This document shows, in pieces, positions 1 to 22,136 of a DNA stretch of 64,000 nucleotides. The translations under genes and the position numbers were made by a program. Below the pieces are notes generated by a model. It did not search any database, was not told the DNA's origin, and was given only the letters and a program-made list of their open reading frames with translations. Position 1 is the stretch's first letter. Each line of letters opens with the position of its first letter. Where the stretch lies: positions 43,329-107,328 of IMG/VR virus record IMGVR_UViG_3300033076_000972; one strand, written 5' to 3'. The DNA comes from a virus. Lineage: Duplodnaviria; Heunggongvirae; Uroviricota; Caudoviricetes.

Positions 1-1
1 G

Positions 2-301
2 ATTAATGGTTTTGCACCACCACCAATTATTCCAACCGCAGATACCAAGCCTTGGGAAATTAAAGCTCTTGATACTAAAGAATTATGGAACGGTACGAAC
101 CCATTCACAATCGCATCATTAGAATTAATTTCAGTTTCAATGGGATGTGAATCATCAAAAGGTGGTCCCGTTACAGGTGGTGTTGTTCACCATTCTTATT
201 GGGAAGCAGGAATTTTAGATAAAATTGCCGAATATTGTGAAGACGATGTAAAAGCGTTAGTAGACCTAATCGAAAAATTTGATAAATTACAATATGTTTA
301 A
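2..301 (+). CDS. DEDDy-type 3'-5' exonuclease-like protein, C-terminal fragment (5' end lies outside the window)
   Basis: Frame is open from the window edge to TAA at 299-301. The C-terminal YCEDDVKALVDL resembles the Exo III (Y-x3-D) motif of Klenow/DnaQ-type proofreading exonucleases. Confidence 0.3.
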   Translation: MNGFAPPPIIPTADTKPWEIKALDTKELWNGTNPFTIASLELISVSMGCESSKGGPVTGGVVHHSYWEAGILDKIAEYCEDDVKALVDLIEKFDKLQYV

Positions 302-890
302 AAATTTAAAACAAATGAATAACTTAATTTCTGAAATGAAGAAATTAACTAATGACCCCGACGCATTAAAAAACCCACAAGCCATGATGGACTCTATGGG
401 TATTAACCAAGAAGAATTGGAAAAACAATTATCGGGTCTGTTGTCCAAAAAAGCAACATTAAAATATACTAAAATACACCCTGAATCTGTTGACCCAAAG
501 TATAATTACGAAAGTGACTCAGGATTTGATTTACATTCAACAGAGGATATTACTGTAGAAGGACTAGGTAGAGCGTTGGTTCCAACAGGATTAAGGTTTG
601 ATATTCCAATGGGTCACGAAATACAAGTTAGACCAAAGAGTGGTTTAGCATTAAAAGAAGGTTTAACAGTTTTAAACACACCGGGAACTGTTGATGCCGG
701 ATATGATGGAGAAGTTAAGGTTATTATTTACAATACAAACCCACAGTCATATCAAGTAAAAAAAGGACAAAAAATTGCACAAGCTGTTTTATGTCCGGTA
801 TTAAATGGTAAATTTGTAACATTACACGAAGTAGTTGAATTAAATGAAAAAGAACGAGGCTCAAACGGATTTGGTTCCACAGGAATCTAA
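294..890 (+). CDS. dut: dUTP diphosphatase (dUTPase) with an N-terminal extension of about 55 aa
   Basis: Canonical dUTPase motifs are present: SGFDLHS (motif 1), GTVDAGYDGEV (motif 3), and a C-terminal RGSNGFGSTG (motif 5). The ORF track starts at TTG 279; the first ATG is at 294. Confidence 0.9.
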   Translation: MFKNLKQMNNLISEMKKLTNDPDALKNPQAMMDSMGINQEELEKQLSGLLSKKATLKYTKIHPESVDPKYNYESDSGFDLHSTEDITVEGLGRALVPTGLRFDIPMGHEIQVRPKSGLALKEGLTVLNTPGTVDAGYDGEVKVIIYNTNPQSYQVKKGQKIAQAVLCPVLNGKFVTLHEVVELNEKERGSNGFGSTGI

Positions 891-1266
891 TATCAGTCCA
901 GTATTACCTAACGGTGTTAAAAACTACTTGATTGATATTGATGGTACCATCACAGAAGATGTACCTAATGAAGAACCAGAACGTATGGCAACTTGTTTAC
1001 CATACAAAGGTTCTGTTGATATGATTAATTCTTGGTATGATGAAGGAAATGTTATTACTTTCTTTACTTCAAGAACCAATGAACATGAAGTAGTTACCAA
1101 ACAATGGTTAGATAAACACGGTTTTAAGTACCATTATTTATTACTTAATAAACCAAGAGGTGGAAATTATCATTGGATTGATAATCACATTGTCAGAGCA
1201 ACTCGTTATGACGGTAAATGGAGTGAATTAGTTAAGAAAGAACACACAATAGAAGTATTTGAATAA
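844..1266 (+). CDS. HAD-superfamily phosphatase, possibly a nucleotidase or a Pnk-like 3'-phosphatase domain
   Basis: LIDIDGTITED matches the DxDGT HAD motif I. Its size and position next to dUTPase fit that reading. The annotated start overlaps dut by 47 nt, so the true start is uncertain. Confidence 0.55.
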   Translation: MKKNEAQTDLVPQESNISPVLPNGVKNYLIDIDGTITEDVPNEEPERMATCLPYKGSVDMINSWYDEGNVITFFTSRTNEHEVVTKQWLDKHGFKYHYLLLNKPRGGNYHWIDNHIVRATRYDGKWSELVKKEHTIEVFE

Positions 1267-2906
1267 TGATTACAATTGGATATAGTACCCGAAGTTCAAA
1301 ACCTGAACTACAAGAATATTTTAAAAAAACTTGTGGTGTAAAAAATATACAGGTTATTGAAAAAGTTAACCCAAATGGTCAGTCGTTAACTGACGTTTAT
1401 AACGATATTTTAAATGAATCTGAAAATGACATTGTTGTACTTTGTCACGATGACATTTATTTTGAAAATAAAAGTTGGGGTTTTAAATTAATTGAGCACT
1501 TTAAAAAAAGTGATTACGGTATTTTAGGTGTTGCCGGGTCAACTTCGTTACCAAAGTCAGGGATGTGGTGGGAAGACCGTCGTAAAATGGTTGGAATTGT
1601 AAATCACGAACATGAAGGTAAGAAATGGGAATCAAAATACTCAAATGATTTAGGTAACAAAATTTATCAAACAGTATTGATTGATGGATTATTTATGGTG
1701 ATTAACAAGAGTCGTATTAAAGAAAATTTTGATACATCAGTAAAAGGTTTTCATTTATACGACGTTGATTTTTGTTTTAGAAATTATTTACAAGATGTTA
1801 AAATTGGTGTTTTATTTAATATTAGAATTACTCACAAATCTATTGGTATGACCAATGAGCAATGGGAGTTAAATCGACAAGAGTTTTCAAATAAGTATAA
1901 AGATAAACTACCAATTAAAATTAAAAAAAATAAACAAGATAGATTAAAAATATTATTATCTTGTTTGAATTTTAAAACCTTTACAGGTTCCGAAGTTTAT
2001 GTTTATGAATTAGCTAAAGGTTTGGTAAAAATGGGACATGATGTAACTGTTTTATCTGAAATTGGTGGACCATTAACCGACAAAGCCAAAAACTTAGGTA
2101 TTAAAGTAAAACCTTTTAGTGAACCACCAGGTTTTAAAATGGGTGATGGAAAATGGGGAATGACTACACCAAATGGAACCGAAGTTTCCAAAGAAGGAAT
2201 GTTATATAAAATACAAGATATGAACTATGATATTATTCACGTTCAACACGAACCTGTAACAAATATGATTTTACAATTATATCCGAATATTGAAAAGATT
2301 GCCACTATTCATTCTGAAGTTATTGACTTGGAAAAACCAATAAAACATGAATCAATCAAAAGATATATTGCAATTAGACCTGAAATAAAAGAACACATTA
2401 TTGAACAAGATGGTATTGATGAAAAGTTAATTGATGTTATTTACAACCCAATTGATGAATCAAGATTTAATCAAAAAGATAATGTTGAAGAAAATGCGGT
2501 TTTATTTGTAGGTACTATTGATTATTTAAGAGAACAATCAATTAAAGATTTAGTTGAATACACAAAAGAAAATCAAATGGAGTTATGGATTGTAGGTGAA
2601 AATAAATCAAATTATTTAGACGATATTTTAATAAATTCTCACGTCAAAAGATTTACGCCGACATGGAATACTGAAACATTTGTTAGAAAGGCAAAAGAAA
2701 CCGCTGGTATTCTTTTAGGTAGAACAACAATTGAAAGTTGGATGTGTGGTAAAAAATCTTGGATTTATAATGTTGATAAATCAGGTGGAATTTTAGGTAA
2801 AGAACTTACTTCACCCCCATCAGATATTGATAAATTTTACAGCTCAACAGTTTGTGATAAATTGGTTGAGTCATATTTGAATATAATTAATGAAACTTCT
2901 AATTAA
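1266..2906 (+). CDS. Two-domain glycosyltransferase (N-terminal GT-A-like, C-terminal GT-B/GT4-like)
   Basis: The N-terminal half has a VVLCHDD acidic motif after a hydrophobic strand, as in a GT-A DxD. The C-terminal half has KILLSCLNF...GSEVYVYELAKGLVKMGHDVTVLS and a distal ...VGTIDY... block typical of the GT4 N- and C-lobes. Confidence 0.55.
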   Translation: MITIGYSTRSSKPELQEYFKKTCGVKNIQVIEKVNPNGQSLTDVYNDILNESENDIVVLCHDDIYFENKSWGFKLIEHFKKSDYGILGVAGSTSLPKSGMWWEDRRKMVGIVNHEHEGKKWESKYSNDLGNKIYQTVLIDGLFMVINKSRIKENFDTSVKGFHLYDVDFCFRNYLQDVKIGVLFNIRITHKSIGMTNEQWELNRQEFSNKYKDKLPIKIKKNKQDRLKILLSCLNFKTFTGSEVYVYELAKGLVKMGHDVTVLSEIGGPLTDKAKNLGIKVKPFSEPPGFKMGDGKWGMTTPNGTEVSKEGMLYKIQDMNYDIIHVQHEPVTNMILQLYPNIEKIATIHSEVIDLEKPIKHESIKRYIAIRPEIKEHIIEQDGIDEKLIDVIYNPIDESRFNQKDNVEENAVLFVGTIDYLREQSIKDLVEYTKENQMELWIVGENKSNYLDDILINSHVKRFTPTWNTETFVRKAKETAGILLGRTTIESWMCGKKSWIYNVDKSGGILGKELTSPPSDIDKFYSSTVCDKLVESYLNIINETSN

Positions 2907-3552
2907 ATTTCCGACAAGGTCTCGTAGAAAACAATTTTTTGAAACTTTTGATAAATACCAACAGTTTATTACTGAACCCACTACTAAATTTTTAATTACC
3001 ATAGATGAGGATGACTCAGATATGAATAATGATGAAGTATTGGCAATACTTGAGTCATATGAAAATGTAACATTTGTGGTTGGTAAGAGTAATTCTAAAA
3101 TTCATGCTATTAATAGAGATATTAATAAAAATGATGATTGGGATATTATTCTTTTAGCATCTGACGATATGATACCACAAGTTAAAGGGTTTGATAAAGT
3201 AATAAACACTTTGATGTCTTCAAATTATCCCGATACTGACGGTATCTTATTTTTTAATGACGGATTTAAAGGTCAAGAATTAAACACACTTTGTATATTG
3301 GGTAAGAAATATTATGAAAGATTCGGATACATTTATTACCCTGAGTATAAATCAACATGGTGTGATAATGAATTTATGATGGTTGGTAATATTCTTAAAC
3401 GACAAAAATATTTCCCAATGGTGATTATTAAACATGAACACCCTGATTGGGGATATGGAAAACACGATATTATACATCATAAAAATCATTCAGATTTGTC
3501 GTTTGACATGAATCTATATAAAGACAGAAAATCCAAAAACTTTTACATATGA
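2890..3552 (+). CDS. Hypothetical protein, possible GT-A-fold glycosyltransferase
   Basis: IILLASDDM is a hydrophobic strand followed by an acidic pair, DxD-like. The gene sits inside the glycosyltransferase cluster. Confidence 0.3.
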   Translation: MKLLIKFPTRSRRKQFFETFDKYQQFITEPTTKFLITIDEDDSDMNNDEVLAILESYENVTFVVGKSNSKIHAINRDINKNDDWDIILLASDDMIPQVKGFDKVINTLMSSNYPDTDGILFFNDGFKGQELNTLCILGKKYYERFGYIYYPEYKSTWCDNEFMMVGNILKRQKYFPMVIIKHEHPDWGYGKHDIIHHKNHSDLSFDMNLYKDRKSKNFYI

Positions 3553-4208
3553 AAAAAATAATTTCATTTTCATTATGGGGTGACAACCCAAAATATACAA
3601 TTGGTGCAATTGAGAACGCTAAATTAGCTAAAATAATATATCCTGATTGGGTATGTCGATTTTATGTTGGTACATCAACACCTGATGAAATTTGGGATGA
3701 ATTATATGATATGGACAATACTGAAATGATTAATATGGATATTGAGGGAGATTGGTCAGGAATGTTTTGGAGATTTTATCCTGCATCTGAAAATGATGTA
3801 GATGTTTTTATTGTTAGAGATACCGATTCAAGATTAAGTAAAAGAGAAAAACAAGCCGTTGATGAGTGGTTATCATCAGATAAAGGATTACATATAATGA
3901 GAGACCATCCTTATCACAATAGTTTAATTATGGGTGGAATGTGGGGAATGAAAAAAGGTACATTTCCTAAAATGAAAGAATTAATTGAAATTTACAAGGG
4001 TGGTGATTTTTGGCAAGTTGACCAAAACTTTCTAAATGAAATGGTTTACCCTTTATGTAAAAACAATACATTTATACATGACGAGTTTATGACATTTGAA
4101 ACTTGGAAAAAACCATTTCCAAGTGAAAGAAATGATAAAGAATTTGTTGGAGATGTTTTTGATGAAAAAAATCAAAGGCACCCCGAATATTATAAATTTT
4201 TAAACTAA
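3549..4208 (+). CDS. Hypothetical protein, possible DxD glycosyltransferase
   Basis: FIVRDTDSRL is a DxD-type motif. An ATGA overlap with the upstream gene indicates co-translation with the cluster. Confidence 0.3.
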   Translation: MKKIISFSLWGDNPKYTIGAIENAKLAKIIYPDWVCRFYVGTSTPDEIWDELYDMDNTEMINMDIEGDWSGMFWRFYPASENDVDVFIVRDTDSRLSKREKQAVDEWLSSDKGLHIMRDHPYHNSLIMGGMWGMKKGTFPKMKELIEIYKGGDFWQVDQNFLNEMVYPLCKNNTFIHDEFMTFETWKKPFPSERNDKEFVGDVFDEKNQRHPEYYKFLN

Positions 4209-4214
4209 AGAGAT

Positions 4215-4874
4215 ATGAAAACAACTGAAGAAATATTAGAAATGTTCCCAGCGAGACTGGTTGAATCAAGAAACTTTAATTACAATGGTAAAACGTATTT
4301 TCAACCATATGAAACAATTTACATAAATGGAGAAAAATTTGACGGACTTAGAAAAAATACAGACCGTGCTGAATTGTTTGATAAAATATTAGAATCAAAA
4401 AATGTTGACTATGACCGTCATTTAGACGTTGGTTCTAATTTAGGTTTTTTTGTTCACCATTTTAGTAAAAAATTTAAAACTAATAATGGTGTTGAAATGG
4501 AAAAATTTTACACAGATATGTGTAATGATATTTTATATCCTGAAATTAGTGGTAGATTCATCAACAATGATTTAAATGTTAAACCTTTAAGAGACTTGTT
4601 TTCTGAACAATTTAACGTTATCACAGCACTTTCAATGATTGAGTATATTAACGATAAATCAAAATTTGTTGAGGACTTATATAATTTAACAAAACAAGTT
4701 TGTATTGTTGAGGGACATAGTGAAGATATTAAAAAAGGATTAGATATTGTTTATGAAAACCATTTAAAATCTCAAGATTGGGAAGTTGAAAGATATTCAG
4801 AACTTACAGAAGCTGGTACTAACGCACCATCAGATTCACCGGGAAGACCTTTATGGATTTGTACTAAAAAATGA
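4215..4874 (+). CDS. Class I SAM-dependent methyltransferase
   Basis: HLDVGSNLGFFVHHF resembles the Rossmann motif I (hh-D/E-h-G-x-G-x-G) of SAM methyltransferases. Confidence 0.45.
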   Translation: MKTTEEILEMFPARLVESRNFNYNGKTYFQPYETIYINGEKFDGLRKNTDRAELFDKILESKNVDYDRHLDVGSNLGFFVHHFSKKFKTNNGVEMEKFYTDMCNDILYPEISGRFINNDLNVKPLRDLFSEQFNVITALSMIEYINDKSKFVEDLYNLTKQVCIVEGHSEDIKKGLDIVYENHLKSQDWEVERYSELTEAGTNAPSDSPGRPLWICTKK

Positions 4875-5344
4875 AAACTTTCATACCCAAAACAAATACA
4901 GTAAATAAAGACAGGATGTATTTTGTCGATAATGATGTATTCATTAAAATTGATACAAATGTTGATAGAGGTAAAAATGAATCAAAAATATTAAATGAAC
5001 TTAAGGGTTTTAAGTATGTACCACAAATTGTTGAATCGATTGAACAGAGTTCAACCCACACACTTAAAATGAATTTTATTTCAGGTGAAACTATAGAAAA
5101 TTGTATATCATTATTATCACTTGATGATAAATTAAAAATCATTAAAGACTTAACAAAAATTATACAATTTTTATTTGACAAAAATATTGTTCATGGTGAT
5201 ATAAATGAAAGTAATATTATTTTTAATTTAGAAACAAAAGAAACATATTTGATTGATTTTGAAACAGGTAAAATTGAAAATAGTATTTTTGATTTGGGGA
5301 GTTATCGTGGTTTACAATATATTATAAATTTTTTTAAATTATGA
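4871..5344 (+). CDS. Small protein-kinase-fold phosphotransferase (APH / choline-kinase / Kdo-kinase-like)
   Basis: Catalytic-loop IVHGDINESNIIF (HGDxxxxN) and LIDFE (DFG-like) motifs are present. At 157 aa it is shorter than typical kinases. Confidence 0.45.
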   Translation: MKTFIPKTNTVNKDRMYFVDNDVFIKIDTNVDRGKNESKILNELKGFKYVPQIVESIEQSSTHTLKMNFISGETIENCISLLSLDDKLKIIKDLTKIIQFLFDKNIVHGDINESNIIFNLETKETYLIDFETGKIENSIFDLGSYRGLQYIINFFKL

Positions 5345-6012
5345 AAATTAAAGATTATCTAAAAAAAGATTTTATTGAGGAGTGTTTATCATTCTTTGGT
5401 GAAAGTGTTAGTGAAATATTAAATGAGGATGTTGATGAGGTTTTATTACATTCGATGAATTTAAGACCTGGTGATTCTTTTTCGTTTTATTCACTTCCGT
5501 TATATGTTGTGGTTAGGATGATAAAACCTGAAAATATTATTGAGACGGGTACACAAAATGGTGGTTCGGCACAAACAATGTTATATGCCTTACACAAAAA
5601 CGGAAAGGGTACATTACATTCAATTGATTCAGGTAATGTGTCAACTGATAATACACATGTCATAACAATTGGTTTACCAGGTGAAAAAATAACAAAATTT
5701 TTAAAAGAAAGATGGAAATTACATTTAGGATTTTCATACGATGTTTTAAGACCTTTATTGGATGAAATAAAAACTGTTGACTTATTTTTTCATGATTCTG
5801 ACCACTCAAAAAAATGTATTGAGTTTGAATTTTCCGAAATAATAAAAAATATAACCAATACATCATTAGTTGGTTTACATGACCATTATGACCAGTGGGA
5901 TTCTAAATCAATTCTTAATGGATTTGAACAAATATTTGCAAAAACAAGACCAAACCAACATTTAGTAAATGGTGAATATCACAATGTATTAAGACTATGG
6001 AAAAGAAGTTAA
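5341..6012 (+). CDS. TylF/MycF-type or CmcI-like SAM-dependent O-methyltransferase
   Basis: IIETGTQNGGSAQTM matches the E-x-G-x-x-x-G-x-S signature of macrocin-O-methyltransferase-family enzymes. Confidence 0.5.
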   Translation: MKIKDYLKKDFIEECLSFFGESVSEILNEDVDEVLLHSMNLRPGDSFSFYSLPLYVVVRMIKPENIIETGTQNGGSAQTMLYALHKNGKGTLHSIDSGNVSTDNTHVITIGLPGEKITKFLKERWKLHLGFSYDVLRPLLDEIKTVDLFFHDSDHSKKCIEFEFSEIIKNITNTSLVGLHDHYDQWDSKSILNGFEQIFAKTRPNQHLVNGEYHNVLRLWKRS

Positions 6013-7079
6013 ACGTAATGCATTATGTTGGCGGATTAAATTACGCAGGTACAAATCGAACTATGGAAAGATTTGTACGAGAAATGGATAAAAATAAATT
6101 TAATGTTTACGTTTTATATAATGAGGTCACAAATGAATTGTATAATCGAACTGATGAATTATCTCGATTAGAGTATTTTAAAAACATTCCAAACATAACT
6201 TTAGTTCCATATAAAATGTGGGACAGGGATGCTGAATACTATTCACCAAATAACACTGATTTTTTTGAAGTTATTTCATCTTTACCTGAAAAAATTGATA
6301 TTTTTCACTTTCACAGAAGTGGTCACACTGAATGGCCAATAACACCAAAGACTGTTAATTTATTTAATAAAGTTGTTGAAACTAATATATTTGCTAGTAG
6401 TGATAATGTAATAAATTTGGATTTATCATTATGCGTGTCAAACCATATTTACTCAAGAAAATCAAATAAAAATAATACCAAAGTATTATACAATGGTATT
6501 GAATTACCTAAAACAGACAAAAATTTACGAGATAAATTAGATATATCTAATGATACATTTGTTTTTGGTAGAATTGGTCGAGATAGTAATTTTACTGATA
6601 TTGCGCTAAAAGCATTTAAAGAAGTTGAAGACAGAAGGGCAAATGTTAAATATATAATTGTAAATCCTTGTAGTAACACAAAAGAATTTGTTTCTAATAA
6701 TAACATTAAAAATGTAATTTTTTTAGACAAAATAATTGATGATGTTGAAATATCAAAATTTTTCAACACAATTGATTGTTTGGCCCATTATAGGTCAGAT
6801 GGTGAGTGTTGTCCTGTTAACATACAAGAATCCATGATTCATGGAAAACCTGTTATATCACACACATCAAATACATTTAATGGACAGGCTGAAATTATAT
6901 CTGATTGTGGTTTTGTGACCAACAACAGTTATGAATATTTTGCAAAGATGATGACACTTATTGATGATAAAAATTTATATCAAGAATTATCCAAAAAATC
7001 ATTTGATTTGGCAAATTCAACATATAGAATTGATGTGATTACAAGACAACTTGAAAATTATTATTTAGAATTGTTTTAA
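5997..7079 (+). CDS. GT-B (GT4-family) glycosyltransferase
   Basis: The C-terminal YRSDGECCPVNIQESMIHGKPVISH fits the E-x7-E / EAMA-G-PVI motif of retaining GT4 enzymes. Confidence 0.65.
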   Translation: MEKKLNVMHYVGGLNYAGTNRTMERFVREMDKNKFNVYVLYNEVTNELYNRTDELSRLEYFKNIPNITLVPYKMWDRDAEYYSPNNTDFFEVISSLPEKIDIFHFHRSGHTEWPITPKTVNLFNKVVETNIFASSDNVINLDLSLCVSNHIYSRKSNKNNTKVLYNGIELPKTDKNLRDKLDISNDTFVFGRIGRDSNFTDIALKAFKEVEDRRANVKYIIVNPCSNTKEFVSNNNIKNVIFLDKIIDDVEISKFFNTIDCLAHYRSDGECCPVNIQESMIHGKPVISHTSNTFNGQAEIISDCGFVTNNSYEYFAKMMTLIDDKNLYQELSKKSFDLANSTYRIDVITRQLENYYLELF

Positions 7080-7080
7080 A

Positions 7081-7776
7081 ATGGAAAAATATATTAGAAT
7101 GGATGATTACCCTCATGGTATGCCAAATTACAGACCAAATTACAAAGAAATAGTTACCGAGTGGGTTAATATATTTGAAAAATATAATATAAAATACATT
7201 TTAGGTGTGACACCACTTTTATTAAAAATGGATGACATACCCCTACTTCAAAAGATTATTAAAAAAGGTAAGATAGTAATGCACGGATTTAACCATAAAT
7301 TTGACCACCCTGGTGATTGGAATACCATTGTTGATACATGGGAACATGGCGGTGAGTTTATGAATATGAGTGAGAATAATATTGATATAAAATATAATCA
7401 ATCAAATAAAATTTTATCTATTTTTGATTCATATGATTCATCACATTTTATACCACCATTTAATTGTCTAACTCAAAATTTAATAAACGTTTTGTCTGAA
7501 AAAGGTGTCAAATACATTCACACTTGTGATAAAGAATACGATGAGTATAATTACAAAAATTTAGATTTTAAAAACATAACCCCAATCATATCAAAATATC
7601 ATAAAGGGTACGACCATGTACACGAAGTAACTAAAAGAATTGGTGGTGATATTGGACAGATTACCCTACACTGGATTTTTGATTCTAATTTTAATGGGTG
7701 GATAAACAATTATGAAAATTTTGCAAAAATATTAAATGAAGATACTGATTATACAGGAGAATGGCAGACACCCTGA
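7081..7776 (+). CDS. Hypothetical protein
   Basis: Long ORF in the co-oriented block. No confident motif found. Confidence 0.5.
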   Translation: MEKYIRMDDYPHGMPNYRPNYKEIVTEWVNIFEKYNIKYILGVTPLLLKMDDIPLLQKIIKKGKIVMHGFNHKFDHPGDWNTIVDTWEHGGEFMNMSENNIDIKYNQSNKILSIFDSYDSSHFIPPFNCLTQNLINVLSEKGVKYIHTCDKEYDEYNYKNLDFKNITPIISKYHKGYDHVHEVTKRIGGDIGQITLHWIFDSNFNGWINNYENFAKILNEDTDYTGEWQTP

Positions 7777-8596
7777 AAACCGAGAATTTAGAGAGTGTTT
7801 CAACTTACAAAGAGCACTTTTAAGAAAAAATATTGATGTCATTGTGTGGGGGTTGGGTCATGAAAACTTTAACACACCTTTTCAAGAAATAATAAAAGAT
7901 ATTGACGTTATTATTCTTTTAGAAAATTACGAATCAAATGGTTGGTTGCCAGATTTAAGTAATCTTAAAATATTGAAAGTATTTTGGAGTATTGATTCGC
8001 ACATGGTTCCAATGAATCACATCACAACTGTGGTTAAAAATAAAATAGATATTGTCTTAAACGCCATAGAATCACACCAAAATTATTTTAAAACATCAAA
8101 AACTTTTTATTTTCCAAATGCGTACCCATCTGATTTAATACAACCAATCAATGGGATTGAGAAAAATATATTTTTAGGATTTTGTGGCTCATTACTTAAT
8201 CGTAATGATATTCTTAACTCATTAGAAACCAAATTTAATTTAAAAAGAGATATTTGGAAATTGGGAAATGAAATGGTAAAAACAATAAACGGATATAAAA
8301 TCCATTTCAATAAAACGTTGTCAAATGATATTAATTACAGAATTTTTGAAACAATGGGATGTAATACTTTAATATTAACTAACAACACCGAAAATATTAA
8401 CACATTTTTTAACGATATGGAAAATGTTGTTGTTTATAACAATGAACCTGAATTGTTTGAGAAATTAAACTTATTATCATCTAACGATGACTTAATTAAA
8501 AAAATTAGTAACTCAGGATATGAATTAGTTAAAAACAATCACACGTATGATAATCGTGCGGATGTTTTACTTAAAATAATTAACGATTACATTTAA
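7736..8596 (+). CDS. Hypothetical protein with a GT-B C-terminal-like tail
   Basis: The C-terminal region (…NEPELFEKLNLLSSNDDLIKKISNSGYELVKNN…) resembles the terminal helix region of GT1/GT4 enzymes. Confidence 0.35.
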   Translation: MKILIIQENGRHPENREFRECFNLQRALLRKNIDVIVWGLGHENFNTPFQEIIKDIDVIILLENYESNGWLPDLSNLKILKVFWSIDSHMVPMNHITTVVKNKIDIVLNAIESHQNYFKTSKTFYFPNAYPSDLIQPINGIEKNIFLGFCGSLLNRNDILNSLETKFNLKRDIWKLGNEMVKTINGYKIHFNKTLSNDINYRIFETMGCNTLILTNNTENINTFFNDMENVVVYNNEPELFEKLNLLSSNDDLIKKISNSGYELVKNNHTYDNRADVLLKIINDYI

Positions 8597-8605
8597 AATT
8601 AAATT

Positions 8606-9355
8606 ATGGATAATAAAAAACCGAGAAGAAAACCTACAGTATCTGTAGAAGACGTAAATCAACAACATAAATCAAAAAAAGAAATTATCAGTACTTTAAT
8701 AAAAAAGAAAACAAAAGATAAATTTTTGTCTAACAGTCAAAGAGAGTATTATGATATTTTACAAAATAGTCAAATAACAATTTGTTCAGGACCTGCAGGT
8801 GTTGGTAAATCATACATCGCAATGAAAGCGGCTGTTGATTTATTGGCAGACCCAAACAATTCTTATGAAAAATTAATTATTGTTAGACCTGCGGTTGAAG
8901 CAGAAGAAAAATTAGGTTCTTTACCTGGTAATGTTGAGGAAAAATTGGACCCGTACATTTTCCCGTCTTATTACCTTTTGAATAAAATTATTGGTAAAGA
9001 TGTTAGAGAAAAATTAAAAGACTTAGAAATTATTGAGGTGTTCGCCTTGGCATATATGAGAGGTATGAACATTGATAACTCAATTCTTATTTTTGAAGAA
9101 GCTCAGAACTGTACACCAAAACAAATGAAACTTCTTATGACAAGAATAGGATTCAATAGTAAATTTTTCATATCAGGAGATTTAGAACAAACTGACCGAT
9201 ATAAAGATAAAACACAATCAGGATTGTGGGATGCATTGGGTAAATTCAAAGACATTGAAGATATTGGAACTTTTACATTTAAAGATTCTGACATTGTAAG
9301 AAATCCAATAATAACTAAAATATTGAAACAATACGAAGATGAAGTTCGCTTTTGA
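8606..9355 (+). CDS. phoH: PhoH-like ATPase
   Basis: Walker A GPAGVGKSYIAMKAAVDLL is present, with an overall PhoH layout including a downstream EEAQNCT Walker B region. Confidence 0.85.
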   Translation: MDNKKPRRKPTVSVEDVNQQHKSKKEIISTLIKKKTKDKFLSNSQREYYDILQNSQITICSGPAGVGKSYIAMKAAVDLLADPNNSYEKLIIVRPAVEAEEKLGSLPGNVEEKLDPYIFPSYYLLNKIIGKDVREKLKDLEIIEVFALAYMRGMNIDNSILIFEEAQNCTPKQMKLLMTRIGFNSKFFISGDLEQTDRYKDKTQSGLWDALGKFKDIEDIGTFTFKDSDIVRNPIITKILKQYEDEVRF

Positions 9356-9950
9356 TACCGATGAAGTTTTAAGGGATACTCTTTCCAAAATAAAAGCAAC
9401 TTATGAAAAGTTTTTTATTGAGGATTATGTATCTGAAGAAGGTGAAGAAGAATTTGAATACAAAATTATAGAGCCAATTACGACTCATAAATTTTCAGAT
9501 TACTTTTTATTTCCATCTGAAAGTGATTATATAAATTTTTTATATTTGGATTTTCCTATGAATATTTTTGGTCACGCACCATCAATATCCGCAAATACAT
9601 TTAACACATTTTCTGAAATACAAAAAAATGTTTTATCAAAAAGAGATAAATTAAGTGTTATTGGTATGGGTATTGCTAAAACAAAACCAGCATCATTATT
9701 TTTTTATTCAAAATATGGGATGGAAGTAGATAACATACTTTTTTATAATAAAAAAACTATAAAAAACATATGGTCAAAATTCGATGTTATTGTTACTGCA
9801 AATCCTGATTTACTTGAAATTAAACCAAAAAATAAAATTTCAATCAAAATAAACACTGAATATAACCAAGATTATGAATCTGATTTTTCAATTGATTCTA
9901 TAGAAGGTTTTACTTCGGTATATAATCAATTAAAATTAAAACATGTTTAA
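9339..9950 (+). CDS. Hypothetical protein
   Basis: ORF in the co-oriented block. Confidence 0.5.
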   Translation: MKFAFDTDEVLRDTLSKIKATYEKFFIEDYVSEEGEEEFEYKIIEPITTHKFSDYFLFPSESDYINFLYLDFPMNIFGHAPSISANTFNTFSEIQKNVLSKRDKLSVIGMGIAKTKPASLFFYSKYGMEVDNILFYNKKTIKNIWSKFDVIVTANPDLLEIKPKNKISIKINTEYNQDYESDFSIDSIEGFTSVYNQLKLKHV

Positions 9951-10209
9951 TATACTTGGTGAAAAATATCACATTGATTTTCAAAAAATTGAAGATTTAA
10001 TTACAATAAAACAAACCGAATCTGGTGACACTGAACAAAACGTAAGTATTGTTAAGTTTGAACTAATTAAAACTATGTTAGATGTTGTCTTATCAGAATC
10101 AGGAGACATTGATGAGAAGATGGGAATGAAAGGGTCAAATGACTTAACTCTTCCCTTTAAATTTGCTTTTAATACATTATTAAGATACGGTATAATACAA
10201 ACATTATGA
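9943..10209 (+). CDS. Hypothetical protein
   Basis: ORF with overlapping start and stop relative to its neighbours. Confidence 0.45.
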   Translation: MFNILGEKYHIDFQKIEDLITIKQTESGDTEQNVSIVKFELIKTMLDVVLSESGDIDEKMGMKGSNDLTLPFKFAFNTLLRYGIIQTL

Positions 10210-11261
10210 ACACAGAACTTATAACAAAATTAGAATTATCAGTTAGTAATCTGAAAAATAAAAAATCAAGAATATATTTTTTAGTTCAGGATACTAAGGG
10301 GAATGCCAAAGCCTCAATTAGAGTAATTTATGAAATGGCTTACCATCTTTTTGAAAGTGGTTATAACGCAATTATTATGCATGAACAAAGTGATTACAAA
10401 GGGGTATCATCTTGGTTGGATGAAAAATATATGAGCTTACCTCACAGAGCAATTGAGGGTCAAAACTTAGAAATTTCACCTGAAGATTTAATGATAATAC
10501 CTGAACTTTATGGTCATGTGATGGAACAAGTTTCCAAATTCCCATGTGGTAAAATTGTATTTTGTCAATCATACGATTACATTATGGAGACATTAAGTCC
10601 AGGTGCATCTTGGTCACAATACGGATTTTTAAAATGTATTACAACAAGTGAGGAGCAAAAAAATTACTTAGAAAAAGTAATGAAAAATGTTTCATTTGAT
10701 GTTATCAAACCAACAATATCAACTTGTTTTGAAAAGAAATCAGTACCCGCAAAACCAATAGTTTCGGTGCACACAAGAGACCAAAGAGACACAATGAAAT
10801 TAATTAAAACTTTTTATCTTAAATACCCACAATTTAGATGGGTCACTTTTAGAGATATGAGAGGTTTAAGTGAATGGGAATTTGCAACAATATTAAAAGA
10901 TTCGTATGTTTCAGTTTGGGTCGATGATGTTTCAGGATTTGGTACATACCCATTAGAGTCAATGAAAACTGGTACACCTGTTATTGGTAAAATACCAAAT
11001 TTAAAACCTGAATGGATGGATGAACATAATGGTATTTGGACTAACGACGTTATAAATATGGTAGACGTATTAGCTGAGTTTACTCAGAATTGGTTAGAAG
11101 ATAATATTTCTGAAAAATTGTATGAATCAGGTTACACCACCGCTGAAAAATACTCAAACCAAGACGAATTTAAATCTGAAGTTTTAAAAAACTTTTCATT
11201 ATATATAAACACAAGATTAGCAAATTTTGAATCACAATTAGAAAAATTAAAGGCAGAATAA
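10206..11261 (+). CDS. GT-B (GT4-like) glycosyltransferase
   Basis: VSGFGTYPLESMKTGTPVIG matches the EgFGlvxlEAMaxGxPVI motif of the GT4 C-lobe. Confidence 0.5.
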   Translation: MNTELITKLELSVSNLKNKKSRIYFLVQDTKGNAKASIRVIYEMAYHLFESGYNAIIMHEQSDYKGVSSWLDEKYMSLPHRAIEGQNLEISPEDLMIIPELYGHVMEQVSKFPCGKIVFCQSYDYIMETLSPGASWSQYGFLKCITTSEEQKNYLEKVMKNVSFDVIKPTISTCFEKKSVPAKPIVSVHTRDQRDTMKLIKTFYLKYPQFRWVTFRDMRGLSEWEFATILKDSYVSVWVDDVSGFGTYPLESMKTGTPVIGKIPNLKPEWMDEHNGIWTNDVINMVDVLAEFTQNWLEDNISEKLYESGYTTAEKYSNQDEFKSEVLKNFSLYINTRLANFESQLEKLKAE

Positions 11262-11263
11262 TT

Positions 11264-12073
11264 ATGGAACCAATATTAGATATTTCAGTTATATTACCAA
11301 TCGCATCGTCATTTGGAAAAGATTTTGATGAGTTGTTTGAAAAAGCAATTCAATCAATAAAAAAACAACAGGTAAAAATAAATGAATTAATTATTGTTCA
11401 TTCGGATGAAGAATCATTATGTAATAAATTAAACACATTTGATTTTGGTGATTTAAATGTTGTTAAAATTTTAAATGATTCAAAAGATACTGATTACGCA
11501 TCTCAAATTAATTTAGGTATTAAAAACGCTAAATCTACATGGGTTAGTTTTTTTGAACATGATGATGAATATGCGTTTATTTGGTTTAAAAATGTTGCGG
11601 AGTATATTAATTTTCATCCCGAATGTGATGGTTTTTTACCAATTGTCGTTGATGTTAATGAACAAGACATGTTTGCCGGATATACAAATGAAGCAACATT
11701 TGCAGCGTCATTTAACTCCGAAATTGGAATTTTAACTAACGAATTATTAAATCAATATCAAAACTTCCAATCAAGTGGAATGGTGGTTAAAAAATCAGTG
11801 TTGGACAATTTTGGTGGGTTTAAAAAATCAATGAAATTAACTTTTGTTTATGAATTTTTACTTAGATTAACATATAATTCTGCAAGAATTATGACTATCC
11901 CAAGATTAGGATATAAGCATGTTAATATGAGAGAATCTTCTATTTTTTGGAATTACAAAAACGGAAAAAATATTCTAACAGATAATGAAGTTAAATTTTG
12001 GGTAGATACGGCCAAAAAAGAATATTTTTTTACAAATGACCGTAACATAAAATACGAAGAAACCAATAGTTAA
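11264..12073 (+). CDS. GT2-family (GT-A) glycosyltransferase
   Basis: The N-terminal DISVILPIAS is a typical GT2 start. FFEHDDEYA provides a DxD-like motif. Confidence 0.55.
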   Translation: MEPILDISVILPIASSFGKDFDELFEKAIQSIKKQQVKINELIIVHSDEESLCNKLNTFDFGDLNVVKILNDSKDTDYASQINLGIKNAKSTWVSFFEHDDEYAFIWFKNVAEYINFHPECDGFLPIVVDVNEQDMFAGYTNEATFAASFNSEIGILTNELLNQYQNFQSSGMVVKKSVLDNFGGFKKSMKLTFVYEFLLRLTYNSARIMTIPRLGYKHVNMRESSIFWNYKNGKNILTDNEVKFWVDTAKKEYFFTNDRNIKYEETNS

Positions 12074-12828
12074 TGTTATTAGCTGAAGAAATTCAAAGTG
12101 GAACTACCGAGTCCTTAGAATCAAAACGCAGTAAAAAAGTTAAGTCAAATAATTACTTTGACGTAAGAGAAGAAACTGCGGTTGTTATGTTTTTACAGGC
12201 AGAGACAATGAAAGAAAGGAACGAAATCTACAATGAATTTTTAAAAAAACCAATTGAGAAAATGGTATCTTCAATTATTAGAAGATACAAACTATATAGG
12301 AAAGATATGTCGTTTGAGGAAATCTTAAACGACACTCATTCTTTTCTGATTACCAAGTCAGACAAATTTATACCCGACAAAAATAAAAAGGCTTACTCTT
12401 ATTTTGGTACAATCTGTAAAAATTATTTGATGGGTCAAATAATTAAAGACCAAAAAGATACAAATAGAAAAGTATCATATGAAGATATATCATCTAGTTT
12501 AGAGGAAAGACCTGATTTGGTTTACTATATTGAAAATGATGTTGTTGAAACCGACAAAATAATCATGGATTATATTGGTCAACTAAAGTCTTTTATTGAG
12601 TCGTCATCTTTAAATGAAAATGAAGTAAAATTAGGTTATGCCTTATTAGAGTTATTTGAAAATTATGACAGTATTTTTGTAGGTAATGATAATAAAAAAT
12701 TTAATAAAAATTTAGTATTAATGTCTATCCGTGAGATGACAAATTTATCGACAAAGGAAATTAGGTTAAGTATGAAAAAGTACAAAAAACTATACTTTGA
12801 TTTTGTTAAAAACATTGATAACAGATAA
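12073..12828 (+). CDS. Hypothetical protein (weak sigma-factor region-2-like stretch)
   Basis: The segment EIYNEFLKKPIEKMVSSIIRRYKLY loosely resembles sigma-70 region 2.1-2.2. This is not conclusive. Confidence 0.3.
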   Translation: MLLAEEIQSGTTESLESKRSKKVKSNNYFDVREETAVVMFLQAETMKERNEIYNEFLKKPIEKMVSSIIRRYKLYRKDMSFEEILNDTHSFLITKSDKFIPDKNKKAYSYFGTICKNYLMGQIIKDQKDTNRKVSYEDISSSLEERPDLVYYIENDVVETDKIIMDYIGQLKSFIESSSLNENEVKLGYALLELFENYDSIFVGNDNKKFNKNLVLMSIREMTNLSTKEIRLSMKKYKKLYFDFVKNIDNR

Positions 12829-12853
12829 AATCTGTTATTAAATATTTATAAGT

Positions 12854-13231
12854 ATGTCAAGACCTAAGAAAAAAGAAATATCGTTAAATAAAGAATCTGT
12901 ATTATCTTTAATGCAAGAAATTTATAATGAGCTTGTTGAACAAAGAGCAACTGCATTAAGAATTCAAAACAAAATGTTGGCATTAATGAAAGACACTTCC
13001 GACATGGCGGTTATTGGTCCAATCATTAAAGAACAACAAAAAATAATTAACGACACTGTTGAAAAAAAGTTAACTTTATCCAAACTACAATCAACTGTTT
13101 GGGACAAATCACAACAAAAAAATAATGATGAAAACTTCTCAATATCTGATATTGATGATACATTAATTCAAGACTTACTTAAAAAAGACATTTCAAACGA
13201 AGGTTCAGACGGGTATAAACTTAATAAATAA
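12854..13231 (+). CDS. Hypothetical protein
   Basis: ORF. Confidence 0.5.
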   Translation: MSRPKKKEISLNKESVLSLMQEIYNELVEQRATALRIQNKMLALMKDTSDMAVIGPIIKEQQKIINDTVEKKLTLSKLQSTVWDKSQQKNNDENFSISDIDDTLIQDLLKKDISNEGSDGYKLNK

Positions 13232-13240
13232 TTTAATGTT

Positions 13241-20306: not shown

Positions 20307-22136
20307 TTATCTCAATTCTCTCAAGTCAAACGTTCTAACGCCATCAACTGTGATTTTACCGTAGAAACGGTTGTTCACCATCTTCTTAGCGTATCTTGTC
20401 ATGATACCTTTGATAGGTGTGAAGTTGAATGGGTTATACATTGTTGGAGTTAATTGTAATGGTACGTATGGTGCGTACACATAACCTGTATCTAACAACG
20501 AGTTACCTTTGTGACCCAACAATACTGTGTTTGGTGGGAAATAAGGGTCTCTGTAAACTTGGTATCTACCAGCCAAAGTACCAACTCTTTCAATACCCAT
20601 GTTGTATTGGTCTTGCTCAGGAGCTGCATTTGATACGTGGAAGTATTCCAAATCATCAAAGATTGCACTGATTTCAGAAGAAACAACAATCCAGTTAGCT
20701 CCACCTCTCAATGTTGATTTGTGGATTTGTGCTGAAATTTGGTTGATTGCTGTAATCAATGTTTGGTTCCAATCTTTTTGAGTGTATTGTGTTAATGGAT
20801 TAGCAGATGTACCTCTCTTCCATCCGTTGTAATCCCATCTCAATGACCATGCCGCACCTTTTCTCAAATCTCTCAAGATTTCTCTGTCGATTTCAGCCGC
20901 AACTTGCTCAGACAATAAAGCTGTCAATTCAGCTTCAGCGTCGATGTTGTGGAATGCTGCAACGTCTTGTGCCATTTCAGGTGACCATTGAGCTCTTAAT
21001 TTTCTTTCAGTTACAGAAACTGTTACTGACTGAAGGTCAAATGATACTTCACCAATTTTATCTTCAAATTCTAACTCTTCGTATCTTCTCCAAGTCGCCA
21101 AGAAAGGAGCTTGAGCCAAAGTACCAATTGTTTGAGTTGTGAAACCTGAATAACCATCTAATGAACCTGCACCAATAGCACATGGTACTTGAGTGTCAAC
21201 TTCTAAGTAGATGATACCTTCTTGACTACAGATATTATCATAAGTACCACCGTTACCTAATGAATCAAATGTAGCTGTTGATTGTGTACCATATTGTACT
21301 ATACCTTTACCGTATTTTTGAGTAACAACTCTAAACAACAATGGACCAGTACCTAAAGAAGTACCGTTAGTTGTTCCTGTGAATCCGTTACCTGCCAAAC
21401 CAGTACGAACTGTGATTTGTAATGAAGATAAGAATTCTTCAGTATCCATTTCGTTACCGCTTGGGCCAATTAATTTACCTTCACCAGCAGTTGCAAAACC
21501 TGACATAGCAAGTAATACTTTTCTATATTCAGTTGTTTGTGTGTATGCACTAGGTACTAAATCAGAACCACTCCATGCAACTGTACCACAGTTAGAAGTT
21601 TCAGCACTGAATCTACCTTTTGAGTAGTCAAATAAACCTGGTGGGTCTAATGCTGGTTCGTTACCTTCGTAGAATCTGTCATACAAATTCTTGTCAGTAG
21701 CTTGGTTGTAACCTGCAGTTGCAGATGCTGGACCGTTTGGTGCTCCATAAGGTGCGTAGTGTGTACCACCCGCAGTTGGGTCAGTCAAGTTAGGGTCGTA
21801 AGCCTGAATTTTAGGTACGAAGTAGAACAATTTACCGATAGGTAAGTTCATTGCTTGTACAGAAACGATGTCGTTAGCTAACAACTTAGAGAAAACTCTT
21901 CTTACGATTGGAAATACAACCGTTTCGAAAGAACCGTCTGAAGATGTAGTAGCAGCTTCGTTGATTAAGTGTGATGCTTGGTTTTCATAAAGTTGAGCGA
22001 TGTTTTCTTTAACATGACCTCTCAAACCTTCCAAGAATCCTAATTTGTCCCATTTGTTAATAGTATCTTCTTTGATAACTTTAAGGTGCTTAAGACCGAT
22101 GTTACCAACAAGACCTGATTCTAATAATGCTCCCAT
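20307..22136 (-). CDS. Major capsid protein candidate
   Basis: 609 aa with strongly biased, high-expression codon usage. It is the last gene of the terminase-portal-protease-scaffold series and sits immediately after the acidic scaffold gene. Confidence 0.65.
   Translation of the reverse strand: MGALLESGLVGNIGLKHLKVIKEDTINKWDKLGFLEGLRGHVKENIAQLYENQASHLINEAATTSSDGSFETVVFPIVRRVFSKLLANDIVSVQAMNLPIGKLFYFVPKIQAYDPNLTDPTAGGTHYAPYGAPNGPASATAGYNQATDKNLYDRFYEGNEPALDPPGLFDYSKGRFSAETSNCGTVAWSGSDLVPSAYTQTTEYRKVLLAMSGFATAGEGKLIGPSGNEMDTEEFLSSLQITVRTGLAGNGFTGTTNGTSLGTGPLLFRVVTQKYGKGIVQYGTQSTATFDSLGNGGTYDNICSQEGIIYLEVDTQVPCAIGAGSLDGYSGFTTQTIGTLAQAPFLATWRRYEELEFEDKIGEVSFDLQSVTVSVTERKLRAQWSPEMAQDVAAFHNIDAEAELTALLSEQVAAEIDREILRDLRKGAAWSLRWDYNGWKRGTSANPLTQYTQKDWNQTLITAINQISAQIHKSTLRGGANWIVVSSEISAIFDDLEYFHVSNAAPEQDQYNMGIERVGTLAGRYQVYRDPYFPPNTVLLGHKGNSLLDTGYVYAPYVPLQLTPTMYNPFNFTPIKGIMTRYAKKMVNNRFYGKITVDGVRTFDLRELR

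Follow-up and report, generated by a model that had tools for sequence, protein, structure and literature searches.

A hypervariable glycosyltransferase locus in an uncultured T4-like phage of Bacteroidota, with virion proteins as possible targets of O-glycosylation

The glycosyltransferase cluster and its genes

The stretch of DNA analysed here (the window, 64,000 nucleotides, positions 43,329 to 107,328 of the IMG/VR virus record IMGVR_UViG_3300033076_000972) carries at positions 1266-12073 a dense cluster of genes for glycan enzymes, with seven glycosyltransferase (GT) open reading frames (ORFs), which together hold eight GT domains, two methyltransferase genes (one assigned firmly, the other probable), a single kinase gene, a DUF2334 protein and a small HAD phosphatase. 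No nucleotide-sugar synthesis genes are present in this window. Every ORF from 279 to 15406 lies on the plus strand, with gaps of at most 25 nt and junction overlaps of 1, 4 (ATGA; four of these), 8, 16, 17, 41 or 47 nt. The features of the locus are listed below, and locus counts, here and throughout, refer to 80 fetched related loci that carry the fused GT of 1266-2906 (L001-L080, about 1.6 Mb in total).

279-890 (+): dUTPase, the conserved left neighbour (Pfam 2e-25), beside the fused GT in 78 of 80 loci
844-1266 (+): small HAD phosphatase of the 1xpj type (Pfam LNS2/Acid_phosphat_B), in 17 of 80 loci
1266-2906 (+): bifunctional GT-A/GT-B fusion of 546 aa (Glyco_tranf_2_5 4e-26 and Glyco_transf_4 3e-17), in 80 of 80 loci
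2890-3552 (+): semi-conserved GT (phrog_14945 3e-18), in 15 of 80 loci
3549-4208 (+): GT of GT-A fold from a family without a Pfam model, in 7 of 80 loci
4203-7723 (unstranded interval): window-specific tailoring cassette of five genes, delimited by blastn breakpoints, in 0 of 80 loci
4215-4874 (+): probable S-adenosylmethionine (SAM)-dependent methyltransferase, weak (Methyltransf_23 2.9e-4 and Methyltransf_12 2e-3, both under the Pfam cut-off)
4871-5344 (+): minimal phosphotransferase of protein-kinase fold, 157 aa (Pkinase 6e-10; also RIO1, ABC1, choline kinase, APH and Kdo kinase)
5341-6012 (+): class I SAM methyltransferase (Methyltransf_24, Pfam 4.1e-13)
5997-7079 (+): GT4-type GT-B glycosyltransferase (Glycos_transf_1 1.5e-8)
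7081-7776 (+): DUF2334 protein (Pfam 1.3e-7)
7736-8596 (+): GT with a GT-B C-terminal domain (Glyco_trans_1_2 3.8e-22)
8606-9355 (+): PhoH-like ATPase, which opens the conserved right-hand block (Pfam 2.8e-62; about 76% identity in relatives)
9339-10209 (+): two conserved ORFs of 203 aa and 88 aa, always between PhoH and the GT-B in relatives
10206-11261 (+): conserved GT-B-like glycosyltransferase of 351 aa (PDB 8xsg/8xsh 1.6e-5)
11264-12073 (+): conserved GT2 (GT-A) glycosyltransferase (Glycos_transf_2 1.5e-7; DxD in EHDDEY)

An earlier note, made from the sequence alone, had anticipated much of this organization. The minimum of five GTs of both GT-A and GT-B types that it had counted is raised by profile and structure searches to seven ORFs and eight domains, and these folds are real for 1266-2906, 3549-4208, 5997-7079, 7736-8596 and 11264-12073, with weaker assignments for 2890-3552 (PHROG only) and 10206-11261 (the PDB match only). 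The kinase-fold protein and the tight coupling of co-directional, overlapping genes that it had described are both found, and its view of a multi-enzyme glycan cluster, with a complex methylated oligosaccharide as the expected product, is supported. Two of the two or three methyltransferases that it had proposed are recovered (5341-6012 firmly and 4215-4874 below threshold), but a third was not found; likewise, the dUTPase and the HAD phosphatase do flank the cluster (Pfam), but PhoH, taken for the opposite border, lies inside the range, with two more GT genes beyond it. PHROGs provide no function for most ORFs.

The AlphaFold model of the fused GT (predicted local distance difference test, pLDDT, 91.3) consists of an N-terminal GT-A domain, with the DxD motif in CHDDIYF, and a C-terminal GT4-type GT-B domain. 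In Foldseek searches, the GT-B domain matches 7qsg, MshA, BshA and PimA and the GT-A domain matches 2nxv/2qgi; as a whole, fold searches against PDB and BFVD yield only GT4 and GT-A matches of a generic kind, from which the acceptor cannot be told. After uncultured phages, the best viral structural matches of this protein are multi-domain GT-A and GT-B enzymes of giant viruses. To its left, the HAD protein has its best PDB matches in 1xpj (1.5e-4) and the capsule biosynthesis protein 9iqw, and since 1xpj is also the top structural match of the sugar phosphatases RB69 gp51 and DLP3 gp81, it is probably a sugar-phosphate phosphatase.

The two enzymes that follow the fused GT are both semi-conserved. 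Homologues of 2890-3552 carry a GT annotation in Streptomyces and Arthrobacter phages; in Streptomyces phage Kenrey (L163, 57820-59099) and other actinophages they occur as GT pairs amid replication genes, adjoining a nucleotidyltransferase, a deoxynucleoside monophosphate kinase and a phosphatase, a context that would suit glycosylation of DNA or nucleotides in those phages. The family of 3549-4208 comprises more than 4,600 sequences in databases, and its match to GtrB covers the soluble GT-A domain only. Some phage homologues of 219 aa have been named 'protein O-GlcNAc transferase' (transferase of O-linked N-acetylglucosamine) by JGI, and in L170 (CAKLQH020000005.1, 'Acinetobacter phage MD-2021a'), which is evidently a fragment of a bacterial chromosome (recN, gspE/F, tpiA, secG), a further homologue makes up the C-terminal portion of a protein of 436 aa whose annotation is SPINDLY-family O-GlcNAc transferase. 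PDB sequence searches with 2890-3552, 11264-12073 and the 3549-4208 profile gave nothing useful.

In the cassette, the first ORF (4215-4874) holds a readable motif, LDVGSNLGFF, and is a probable SAM-dependent methyltransferase. The kinase-fold protein matches Bud32 (2e-13) and Kdo kinase (2e-6), retains the catalytic HGDxxxxN and IDFE motifs and is probably a sugar kinase. The GT-B enzyme of 5997-7079 shares 27% identity with GT1 of P-SSM2 and P-SSM5 and has a 34% homologue inside a bacterial Wzm/Wzt (Wzt_C) O-polysaccharide locus rich in methyltransferases, and the ORF after it belongs to DUF2334, a polysaccharide-deacetylase-like family. A capping module (methyltransferase-kinase-methyltransferase) of the type of WbdD, a chain-terminating kinase and methyltransferase, was considered and rejected: neither the kinase nor the first methyltransferase retrieves WbdD from the PDB by sequence, Bud32 and CK2 are the nearest matches of the kinase, and the likeness is limited to the methyltransferase-kinase gene order. 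Divergent alleles (56-87% identity) of 7736-8596 occur in 5 loci, where they border the variable region on its right. Farther to the right, the ORFs of 203 and 88 aa have zero Pfam or PHROG matches, and the structures matched by the following GT-B, 8xsg/8xsh, are those of an A. minor (Actinobacillus) glucoside glucosyltransferase. Straight after the GT2 gene, an ORF of 251 aa (12073-12828, +) is the only one of the block with homologues in cultured relatives (immuto, Mel-JY01 and a 484-kb uncultured phage, 23-26% identity), and may be a conserved regulatory or late-transcription factor.

A conserved frame around exchangeable cassettes

At least 113 IMG/VR contigs, the longest of 294 kb, encode a version of the fused GT (44-90% identity), and more than 3,116 metagenomic proteins match it, the best 120 of which are full-length and 60-91% identical. 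The fused GT has no homologue among the cultured phages searched; moreover, tblastn of the conserved right-hand block against cultured phages gives almost nothing, and megablast of 1-12500 against them gives zero matches. The dUTPase gene is adjacent to the fused GT in 78-80 of the 80 loci. In the relatives, a 403-aa GT-B (Glyco_trans_1_4, 26.3 bits) is encoded just upstream of the point at which the window starts (77 of 80 loci, 65% identity), followed by an exonuclease, whose 3' end opens the window. On the other side, the block of PhoH, the 203-aa ORF, the 88-aa ORF, GT-B and GT2 is complete in all 12 loci with at least 2.1 kb past PhoH, and the GT-B of 10206-11261 retains 55-88% identity across them. 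The frame is, therefore, made of four conserved soluble GT genes, namely the upstream GT-B, 1266-2906, 10206-11261 and 11264-12073.

Within this frame, the five ORFs of 4215-7776 are present in none of the related loci. DNA alignments with L001, L005 and L008 are colinear at 75-86% over 1-4202 and resume at 7718-7736 or 8613, while unrelated segments of 3.7-7.8 kb stand in for 4203-7723; the breakpoints are sharp, at 4202 and about 7724 (blastn), and the GC content of the cassette is 0.271, as compared with 0.304 in the left flank. Thus, with constant flanks and a replaced core, the window exemplifies a recombination hot spot at a fixed site, into which different cassettes of glycan-tailoring genes are inserted. 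The 796 island ORFs of the 80 loci and 19 ORFs of the window fall into 186 families, of which 68 are singletons, and the family representatives match 79 Pfam families, dominated by GT2, FkbM and other methyltransferases, DegT aminotransferases, GMD/epimerases, sulfotransferases, GT47, acetyltransferases and cytidylyltransferases. In the nearest relatives, for example, the cassettes encode UDP-glucose dehydrogenase (UGDH) and WbqC, or GT2 and an epimerase, GT11 fucosyltransferase and FkbM; taken together, the alternative cassettes provide GT11, GMD, epimerases, FkbM, UGDH, WbqC, DegT, sulfotransferases and acetyltransferases, with up to 12 island genes.

All of these enzymes seem to be soluble. 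Polytopic membrane proteins (at least three hydrophobic segments) number zero among the 796 island ORFs and zero among the 19 window ORFs, and the 796 island ORFs contain no GtrA/B/C-like membrane protein and no phosphoglycosyl transferase of the initiating kind, nor a flippase, a polymerase or a ligase. Soluble viral GTs that are not accompanied by lipid-carrier, flippase or export components are a trait of virion-protein glycosylation systems, and this is the composition found here.

The phage, its host and its Thr/Pro-rich proteins

Outside the locus, the following features of the window are relevant to the identity of the phage and to the possible acceptors of the glycan.

20307-22136 (-): major capsid protein of 609 aa, with its best Gp23 stretch at residues 350-596
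33934-34434 (-): candidate glycan acceptor of 166 aa, with an N-terminal mucin-like Thr/Pro repeat of about 105 aa (from its sequence), within the structural module
53804-58345 (+): protein of 1,513 aa with a signal peptide, PKD and a CHU_C (type IX secretion system, T9SS) domain (Pfam)
59283-60317: RNA ligase of the T4 Rnl1 type
63399-64000 (+): thymidylate synthase (TS) homologue, N-terminal 200 aa, cut by the window end, which matches true thymidylate synthases at 2e-33

On these features, the window is that of an uncultured, divergent T4-like phage with a predicted Bacteroidota host. The T4-type backbone includes the Gp23 major capsid protein (1.9e-71), Portal_T4 (4e-78) and the large terminase (Pfam), and a ClpB-like ATPase is also encoded. 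The capsid protein shares 41-45% identity with its nearest matches in the comparison with cultured phages (an uncultured phage, Microcystis phage Mel-JY01 and Flavobacterium phage immuto) and 38% with that of Rhodothermus phage RM378. Since its best Gp23 stretch spans residues 350-596, and since no more than about 55% of it is aligned by tblastn to cultured phages, the protein carries large extra or inserted sequence. The host phylum is deduced from the CHU_C/T9SS protein, the weak relatives of which (24-28% identity) occur solely in Bacteroidota genomes (Ohtaekwangia, Chryseosolibacter, Saprospirales; Cytophagia; unclassified Bacteroidota metagenome-assembled genomes). The earlier note had thought of Flavobacteriia; the phylum is supported, but the class is not established by these matches, which lie in Cytophagia, Saprospirales and unclassified genomes.

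Candidates for glycan acceptors are encoded near the locus in relatives. In 68 of the 80 loci, the strand opposite to that of the fused GT carries, 5.4 kb upstream of it, a conserved 633-aa ORF. This ORF is followed by, or extended into, large ORFs in which mucin-like Thr/Pro (TP) tracts link variable distal domains, so that the general plan is a conserved N-terminus, TP linkers and variable distal domains (Laminin_G_3 in L003). Such a combination is the usual architecture of phage fibres, and the 633-aa family may be described as fibre-like. Altogether, 108 TP tracts occur in 1.59 Mb of GT loci (in 49 of the 80), against 0 in 0.81 Mb of ThyA loci. Nearly all share one position: in 37 of 59 loci they follow the 633-aa ORF directly, and about 11 more coincide with its C-terminal junction, at a distance of 5.4-8 kb from the fused GT. 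A signal-peptide-like N-terminus was found in 0 of 32 distinct TP-linker ORFs; thus, host periplasmic O-glycosylation could not reach these proteins, whereas cytoplasmic phage GTs could. In 60-71 of the 80 loci, the space that separates the fibre-like gene from the upstream GT-B, about 4.5 kb ahead of the fused GT, is taken up by a conserved series of small genes, which encode a DUF3721 protein and products of 135, 101, 135 and 196 aa.

In the window itself, the 166-aa protein of 33934-34434 is a further candidate; its repeat varies in length, with homologues of 132-142 aa in L167 and L169. Other ORFs with unusual compositions lack family matches. The 113-aa ORF of 49685-50026 (-) contains a Ser-rich tract, PSTPSSSAPSSSSSSTSTS, followed by three TKWESGxxRGKxN repeats, and is possibly another glycan acceptor or a glycan-binding repeat; beside the terminase, a 317-aa ORF (31325-32278, -) has a C-terminal two-copy repeat rich in Pro, Lys and Thr that ends in GKKNPFKIEPAQKPNPKA. 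A different kind of modification may concern exported proteins: the T9SS protein has 23 D(S/T)(A/I/L/V/M/T) motifs (1.5 per 100 aa, about five times the chance level), which we take to be the Bacteroidota O-glycosylation sequon, and the exported protein and the GDSL lipase that neighbour it (52872-53699 and 58584-59264) are sequon-rich as well. The secreted or surface proteins made by the phage at 52872-59264 would, on this count, probably be modified by the O-glycosylation system of the host.

Elsewhere in the window, the Rnl1-type RNA ligase and an AAA_33 P-loop kinase, matched in a pooled scan of 25 window ORFs, suggest a tRNA-repair module, and there are two HNH endonuclease ORFs and a nucleotidyltransferase. 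The T4-type late promoter TATAAATA was considered as a clue to timing; it has 16 matches in the window, none positioned to drive the cluster, and the idea was dropped because a rough estimate of the matches expected by chance in this AT-rich sequence (about 29) exceeds this number.

What the glycan may decorate

With somewhat less than even confidence, we favour the reading that a phage-encoded locus for the cytoplasmic O-glycosylation of virion proteins is shared by the whole lineage, and that the region is the version carried by this phage. That a virulent T4-like lineage conserves the frame so strictly is in keeping with a role connected to the virion, and the synteny with proteins that contain mucin-like linkers provides the virion hypothesis with concrete acceptor candidates. 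Virion glycosylation by phage GTs is known in mycobacteriophages, according to the summary of Freeman et al. 2023 given in PMC12619734, and the giant-virus enzymes that resemble the fused GT in fold are counted as a further precedent. As regards acceptor, order of action and biological role, we infer the following from the gene content. Cytoplasmic phage enzymes would draw on UDP- and GDP-sugars of the host, and the conserved GTs would start and extend a core O-glycan on Thr residues in the TP linkers of structural proteins, with the fibre-like 633-aa family and the 166-aa TP-repeat protein of 33934-34434 as candidates. The semi-conserved GT-A enzymes of 2890-4208 and the GT of 7736-8596 would then lengthen the glycan, and the cassette (GT4, two methyltransferases, kinase and DUF2334 protein) would add a strain-specific terminal sugar, O-methyl groups and, possibly, phosphate and de-N-acetylation, while the HAD protein may dephosphorylate a sugar phosphate. 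The outcome would be virions with a variable glycan coat. The broader proposal, that a widespread lineage of large, uncultured freshwater Bacteroidota phages runs its own mucin-type O-glycosylation, in which conserved initiating and core GTs and exchangeable 'serotype' cassettes decorate the TP linkers of the fibres, is put forward more tentatively still.

Several observations weigh against virion glycosylation. The locus lies in a co-directional block with nucleotide-metabolism genes, away from the head and tail genes. GT folds do not reveal acceptors, and known DNA glycosyltransferases have their best PDB matches in the very structures that the GT4 domains match here (7qsg, 3c4q, 3mbo, 5ze7 and 2gej). 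The ThyA loci that served as a control for TP tracts sample a different genome region, and PT-rich linkers are common as flexible spacers even when unglycosylated. The 633-aa family has no match in cultured phages (tblastn), so the label 'fibre' comes from architecture alone. As for the protein of 33934-34434, its homologue in three of five close relatives (L165, L166 and L168) is 62 aa long and devoid of the repeat, although L165 shares a contig with L003, which keeps the conserved GTs; the repeat is, therefore, ruled out as a universal acceptor, and the protein would be at most a facultative one.

The ThyA-family gene is central to one of the alternatives, the modification of DNA. The earlier note had correctly placed such an ORF at the far window edge, where it runs off the end, and had suggested that it could encode a pyrimidine hydroxymethylase, a suggestion that did not survive. 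The fragment matches true TS of the long Firmicutes type and retains W80 and Y94. In this enzyme family, N177D is diagnostic of dCMP specificity, L143D/E of hydroxymethylation and D169N of 5-hydroxylation (PMC13326640). Since the fragment stops short of these three positions, relatives were scored instead, and the equivalents of E. coli L143, D169 and N177 are retained in all 63 scorable full-length ThyA relatives, including the best-matching locus (L083) and the most window-syntenic one (L121); by the same criteria (PMC13326640), this is a methyl-forming, dUMP-specific signature. A role as hydroxymethylase or hydroxylase was rejected on these diagnostic residues of the relatives, and the window homologue looks like a true thymidylate synthase that stands outside the glycan system. 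It is also 51 kb away from the cluster (63399 versus a cluster end at 12073), beyond the approximately 10 kb used as a measure of clustering. In the 80 loci (1.6 Mb), the 10 kb on either side of the fused GT contain neither a ThyA-like gene nor a C5-methyltransferase motif, no DNA-modification family, TET/JBP, DNA methylase and dCTPase included, is among the Pfam matches reported for the window, and no base-hydroxylating enzyme was found in the 64-kb window or the 80 GT loci. The small domain of the thymidylate synthase holds a Cys-rich (CxxC...CxxC) insertion. In the ThyA of L121 and L137, FNMRS(T/N)D replaces WNQRSVD (NMRS for YQRS), a motif that we take to resemble that of T4 gp42, with L143, D169 and N177 retained. 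Flavobacterium phage immuto carries a full 7-deazaguanine set (DpdA, QueC/D/E/F and FolE; L177, 18607-37015), and none of these families turned up in the Pfam scans of the window.

Of the two outcomes entertained in the earlier note, DNA hypermodification or glycosylation of the virion or of host glycans, the second still leads, and for the first the suggested hydroxymethylase ThyA is not supported. As an alternative, the GTs might glycosylate a hydroxylated pyrimidine (5-hydroxymethylcytosine, 5hmC; 5-hydroxycytosine, 5hoC; or 5-hydroxymethyluracil, 5hmU), in the manner of T-even phages, RB69, DLP3 and RL38J1; exchange of cassettes would then vary the glycan on the DNA as a protection from restriction. 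The position of the locus in an early-type block with dUTPase and PhoH would suit this proposal, as would the actinophage homologues of 2890-3552 amid replication genes and the unusual NMRS motif of L121 and L137. Moreover, DNA glycosylation pathways (those mentioned and the MT/5mYOX-GT clusters) have in common with the window a GT4-type GT-B, a 1xpj-type HAD like RB69 gp51 and DLP3 gp81 and a kinase fold, and the kinase-fold ORF and the BshA/MshA-like GT4 enzymes parallel the arabinosylation clusters of RB69 and DLP3. T-even phages have a true TS plus a second ThyA-family enzyme, so a second copy could lie outside the 64 kb. However, genes for DNA hypermodification usually cluster, whereas the only ThyA here is 51 kb off and its 63 scorable relatives bear the TS signature; neither the 1.6 Mb around the fused GT nor the Pfam matches of the window provide the enzymes that the pathway would need; and the tailoring repertoire is far richer, since fucosyl-, sulfo-, amino-, acetyl- and methyl-transferases and up to 12 island genes imply a glycan beyond the mono- to tri-saccharides known on DNA. 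DNA as the target is, on this balance, improbable. Less probable again is that there is no single product, i.e., that the island is a dumping ground of horizontally acquired sugar-metabolism genes (auxiliary metabolic genes), whose products act on host pools independently of each other or make a soluble or cytoplasmic methylated polysaccharide, with no common acceptor. The extreme turnover, with its 68 singleton families, and the lower GC content of the cassette are in line with this, and 7qsg, among the top structural matches of the fused GT, is a cytoplasmic mannosyltransferase of methylmannose polysaccharide. Yet the genes are translationally coupled in one co-directional block and encode glycan enzymes almost exclusively across the 80 loci, and the conservation of the flanking GTs and of the insertion point argues for one pathway.

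Remodelling of host envelope glycans is the strongest of the rivals, though we consider it unlikely. According to this explanation, soluble phage enzymes would act at the cytoplasmic face on undecaprenyl-linked intermediates of the host, destined for O-antigen, capsule or the general O-glycan of Bacteroidota, and flippases, ABC transporters and ligases of the host would export the product, changing the surface of the infected cell and, for example, blocking the adsorption of other phages or of progeny. WbqC, GT11, GMD, FkbM and DegT are families known from loci for O-antigen and capsule, the cassette GT4 has a 34% homologue in a bacterial Wzm/Wzt O-polysaccharide locus, and hypervariability is a feature of O-antigen loci; this is also the customary interpretation of analogous cyanophage islands, and the phage encodes exported sequon-rich proteins (23 sequons in the T9SS protein, about five times chance). 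In temperate-phage seroconversion, a GtrA flippase, a GtrB bactoprenol GT and a polytopic GtrC-type transferase act, in addition to O-acetylases. Here, by contrast, no polytopic membrane ORF accompanies the GTs, the 796 island ORFs include no initiating transferase, flippase, polymerase, ligase or GtrA/B/C-like protein, and the backbone is that of a virulent T4-like phage, so that a non-growing infected cell can be reasoned to insert little new surface glycan, so that any benefit would be limited. Furthermore, four GT genes are kept at 55-90% identity over a lineage that probably spans many hosts, whereas host-specific acceptors predict otherwise.

Glycosylation of virion proteins by the phage, the reading that we favour, can be set beside several known systems. 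The closest are the islands of cyanophages (P-SSM2, S-SRM01, S-SCSM1 and S-SCSM2R), with GT1, GT2, GT10, GT11, GT25, FkbM, GMD, GDP-fucose synthase and small HAD phosphatase, and with an equally putative function; that of S-SRM01 holds GT25, GT11, GT2, FkbM, NodZ, HAD, a nucleoside-diphosphate (NDP)-sugar synthase, GDP-fucose synthase and GMD. The present lineage is likewise T4-like and has a variable island in which several GT families occur together with methyltransferases and NDP-sugar enzymes, and single genes are related: one in the S-SRM01 island is a 41% homologue of 3549-4208, and GT1 of P-SSM2 is 27% identical to 5997-7079. It differs from the cyanophages in its Bacteroidota host, its four-gene GT frame (above all the fused GT) without homologues in cultured phages, its fixed insertion point, sharp cassette boundaries and mucin-like-linker neighbours, and the window differs in its lack of nucleotide-sugar synthesis genes. 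Among freshwater viruses, moraphages are large phages of Bacteroidota with a core ClpA-like ATPase, PhoH, four core GT orthogroups and a Rhodothermus-phage-related major capsid protein (PMC12619734). The window resembles them, by description only, in its freshwater origin, its predicted Bacteroidota host and the affinity of its capsid protein, and it encodes PhoH, a ClpB-like ATPase and, with the gene upstream, the four conserved GTs; contigs related to it are as long as 294 kb. The novelty that the earlier note had claimed for Flavobacteriia phages was, therefore, overstated, as very similar glycan islands are already annotated in the T4-like cyanophages S-SRM01, P-SSM2 and S-SCSM2R, and moraphages are on record with their four core GT orthogroups (PMC12619734), although island architecture, cassette exchange and acceptor candidates are not described in that paper. 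New are the four-gene frame with its abundant fused GT, the bounded exchange of cassettes, the complete lack of membrane components across 80 loci and the synteny with mucin-like linkers.

In mycobacteriophages, chloroviruses and mimivirus, glycosylation is likewise performed by virus-encoded soluble cytoplasmic GTs, and the targets are structural proteins. Chloroviruses combine multi-domain GTs with methyltransferases and build a conserved glycan core with clade-specific outer parts. In comparison with mycobacteriophages, there are many more enzymes here, and the candidate acceptors are TP linkers rather than the C-termini of capsid or tail-tube proteins or Asn sites; the glycan itself is, here, a predicted one. 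A bacterial parallel is that of the serine-rich-repeat adhesins, in which a GT4 (GtfA/GtfB) starts the cytoplasmic O-glycosylation of a Ser/Thr-rich repeat and strain-variable GT-A (GT8) and bifunctional Gly GTs extend the glycan. GtfA (4pqg) and GlyE (5gvv) are among the structural matches obtained here, a likeness at fold level only, as the window system has no GtfB-like partner or accessory Sec components and presents Thr/Pro instead of Ser-rich repeats.

The fused GT family (more than 3,000 sequences) and that of 3549-4208 (more than 4,600, with no Pfam model) represent abundant uncharacterised enzyme families. With its four conserved GTs, its fixed insertion point and cassettes that vary in nature, the locus constitutes a defined experimental handle, which could also address a long-standing question, the role of the 'LPS gene' (lipopolysaccharide gene) islands of cyanophages. 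If virion glycans are indeed the product, particles of lake phages would carry strain-specific sugar coats, which could influence adsorption, aggregation, decay, grazing and recognition by host defences. Phage 'serotypes' would then exist outside actinobacteriophages, and the diversifying glycocalyx of the particles would be analogous to bacterial O-antigen variation and to the fibril glycans of giant viruses.

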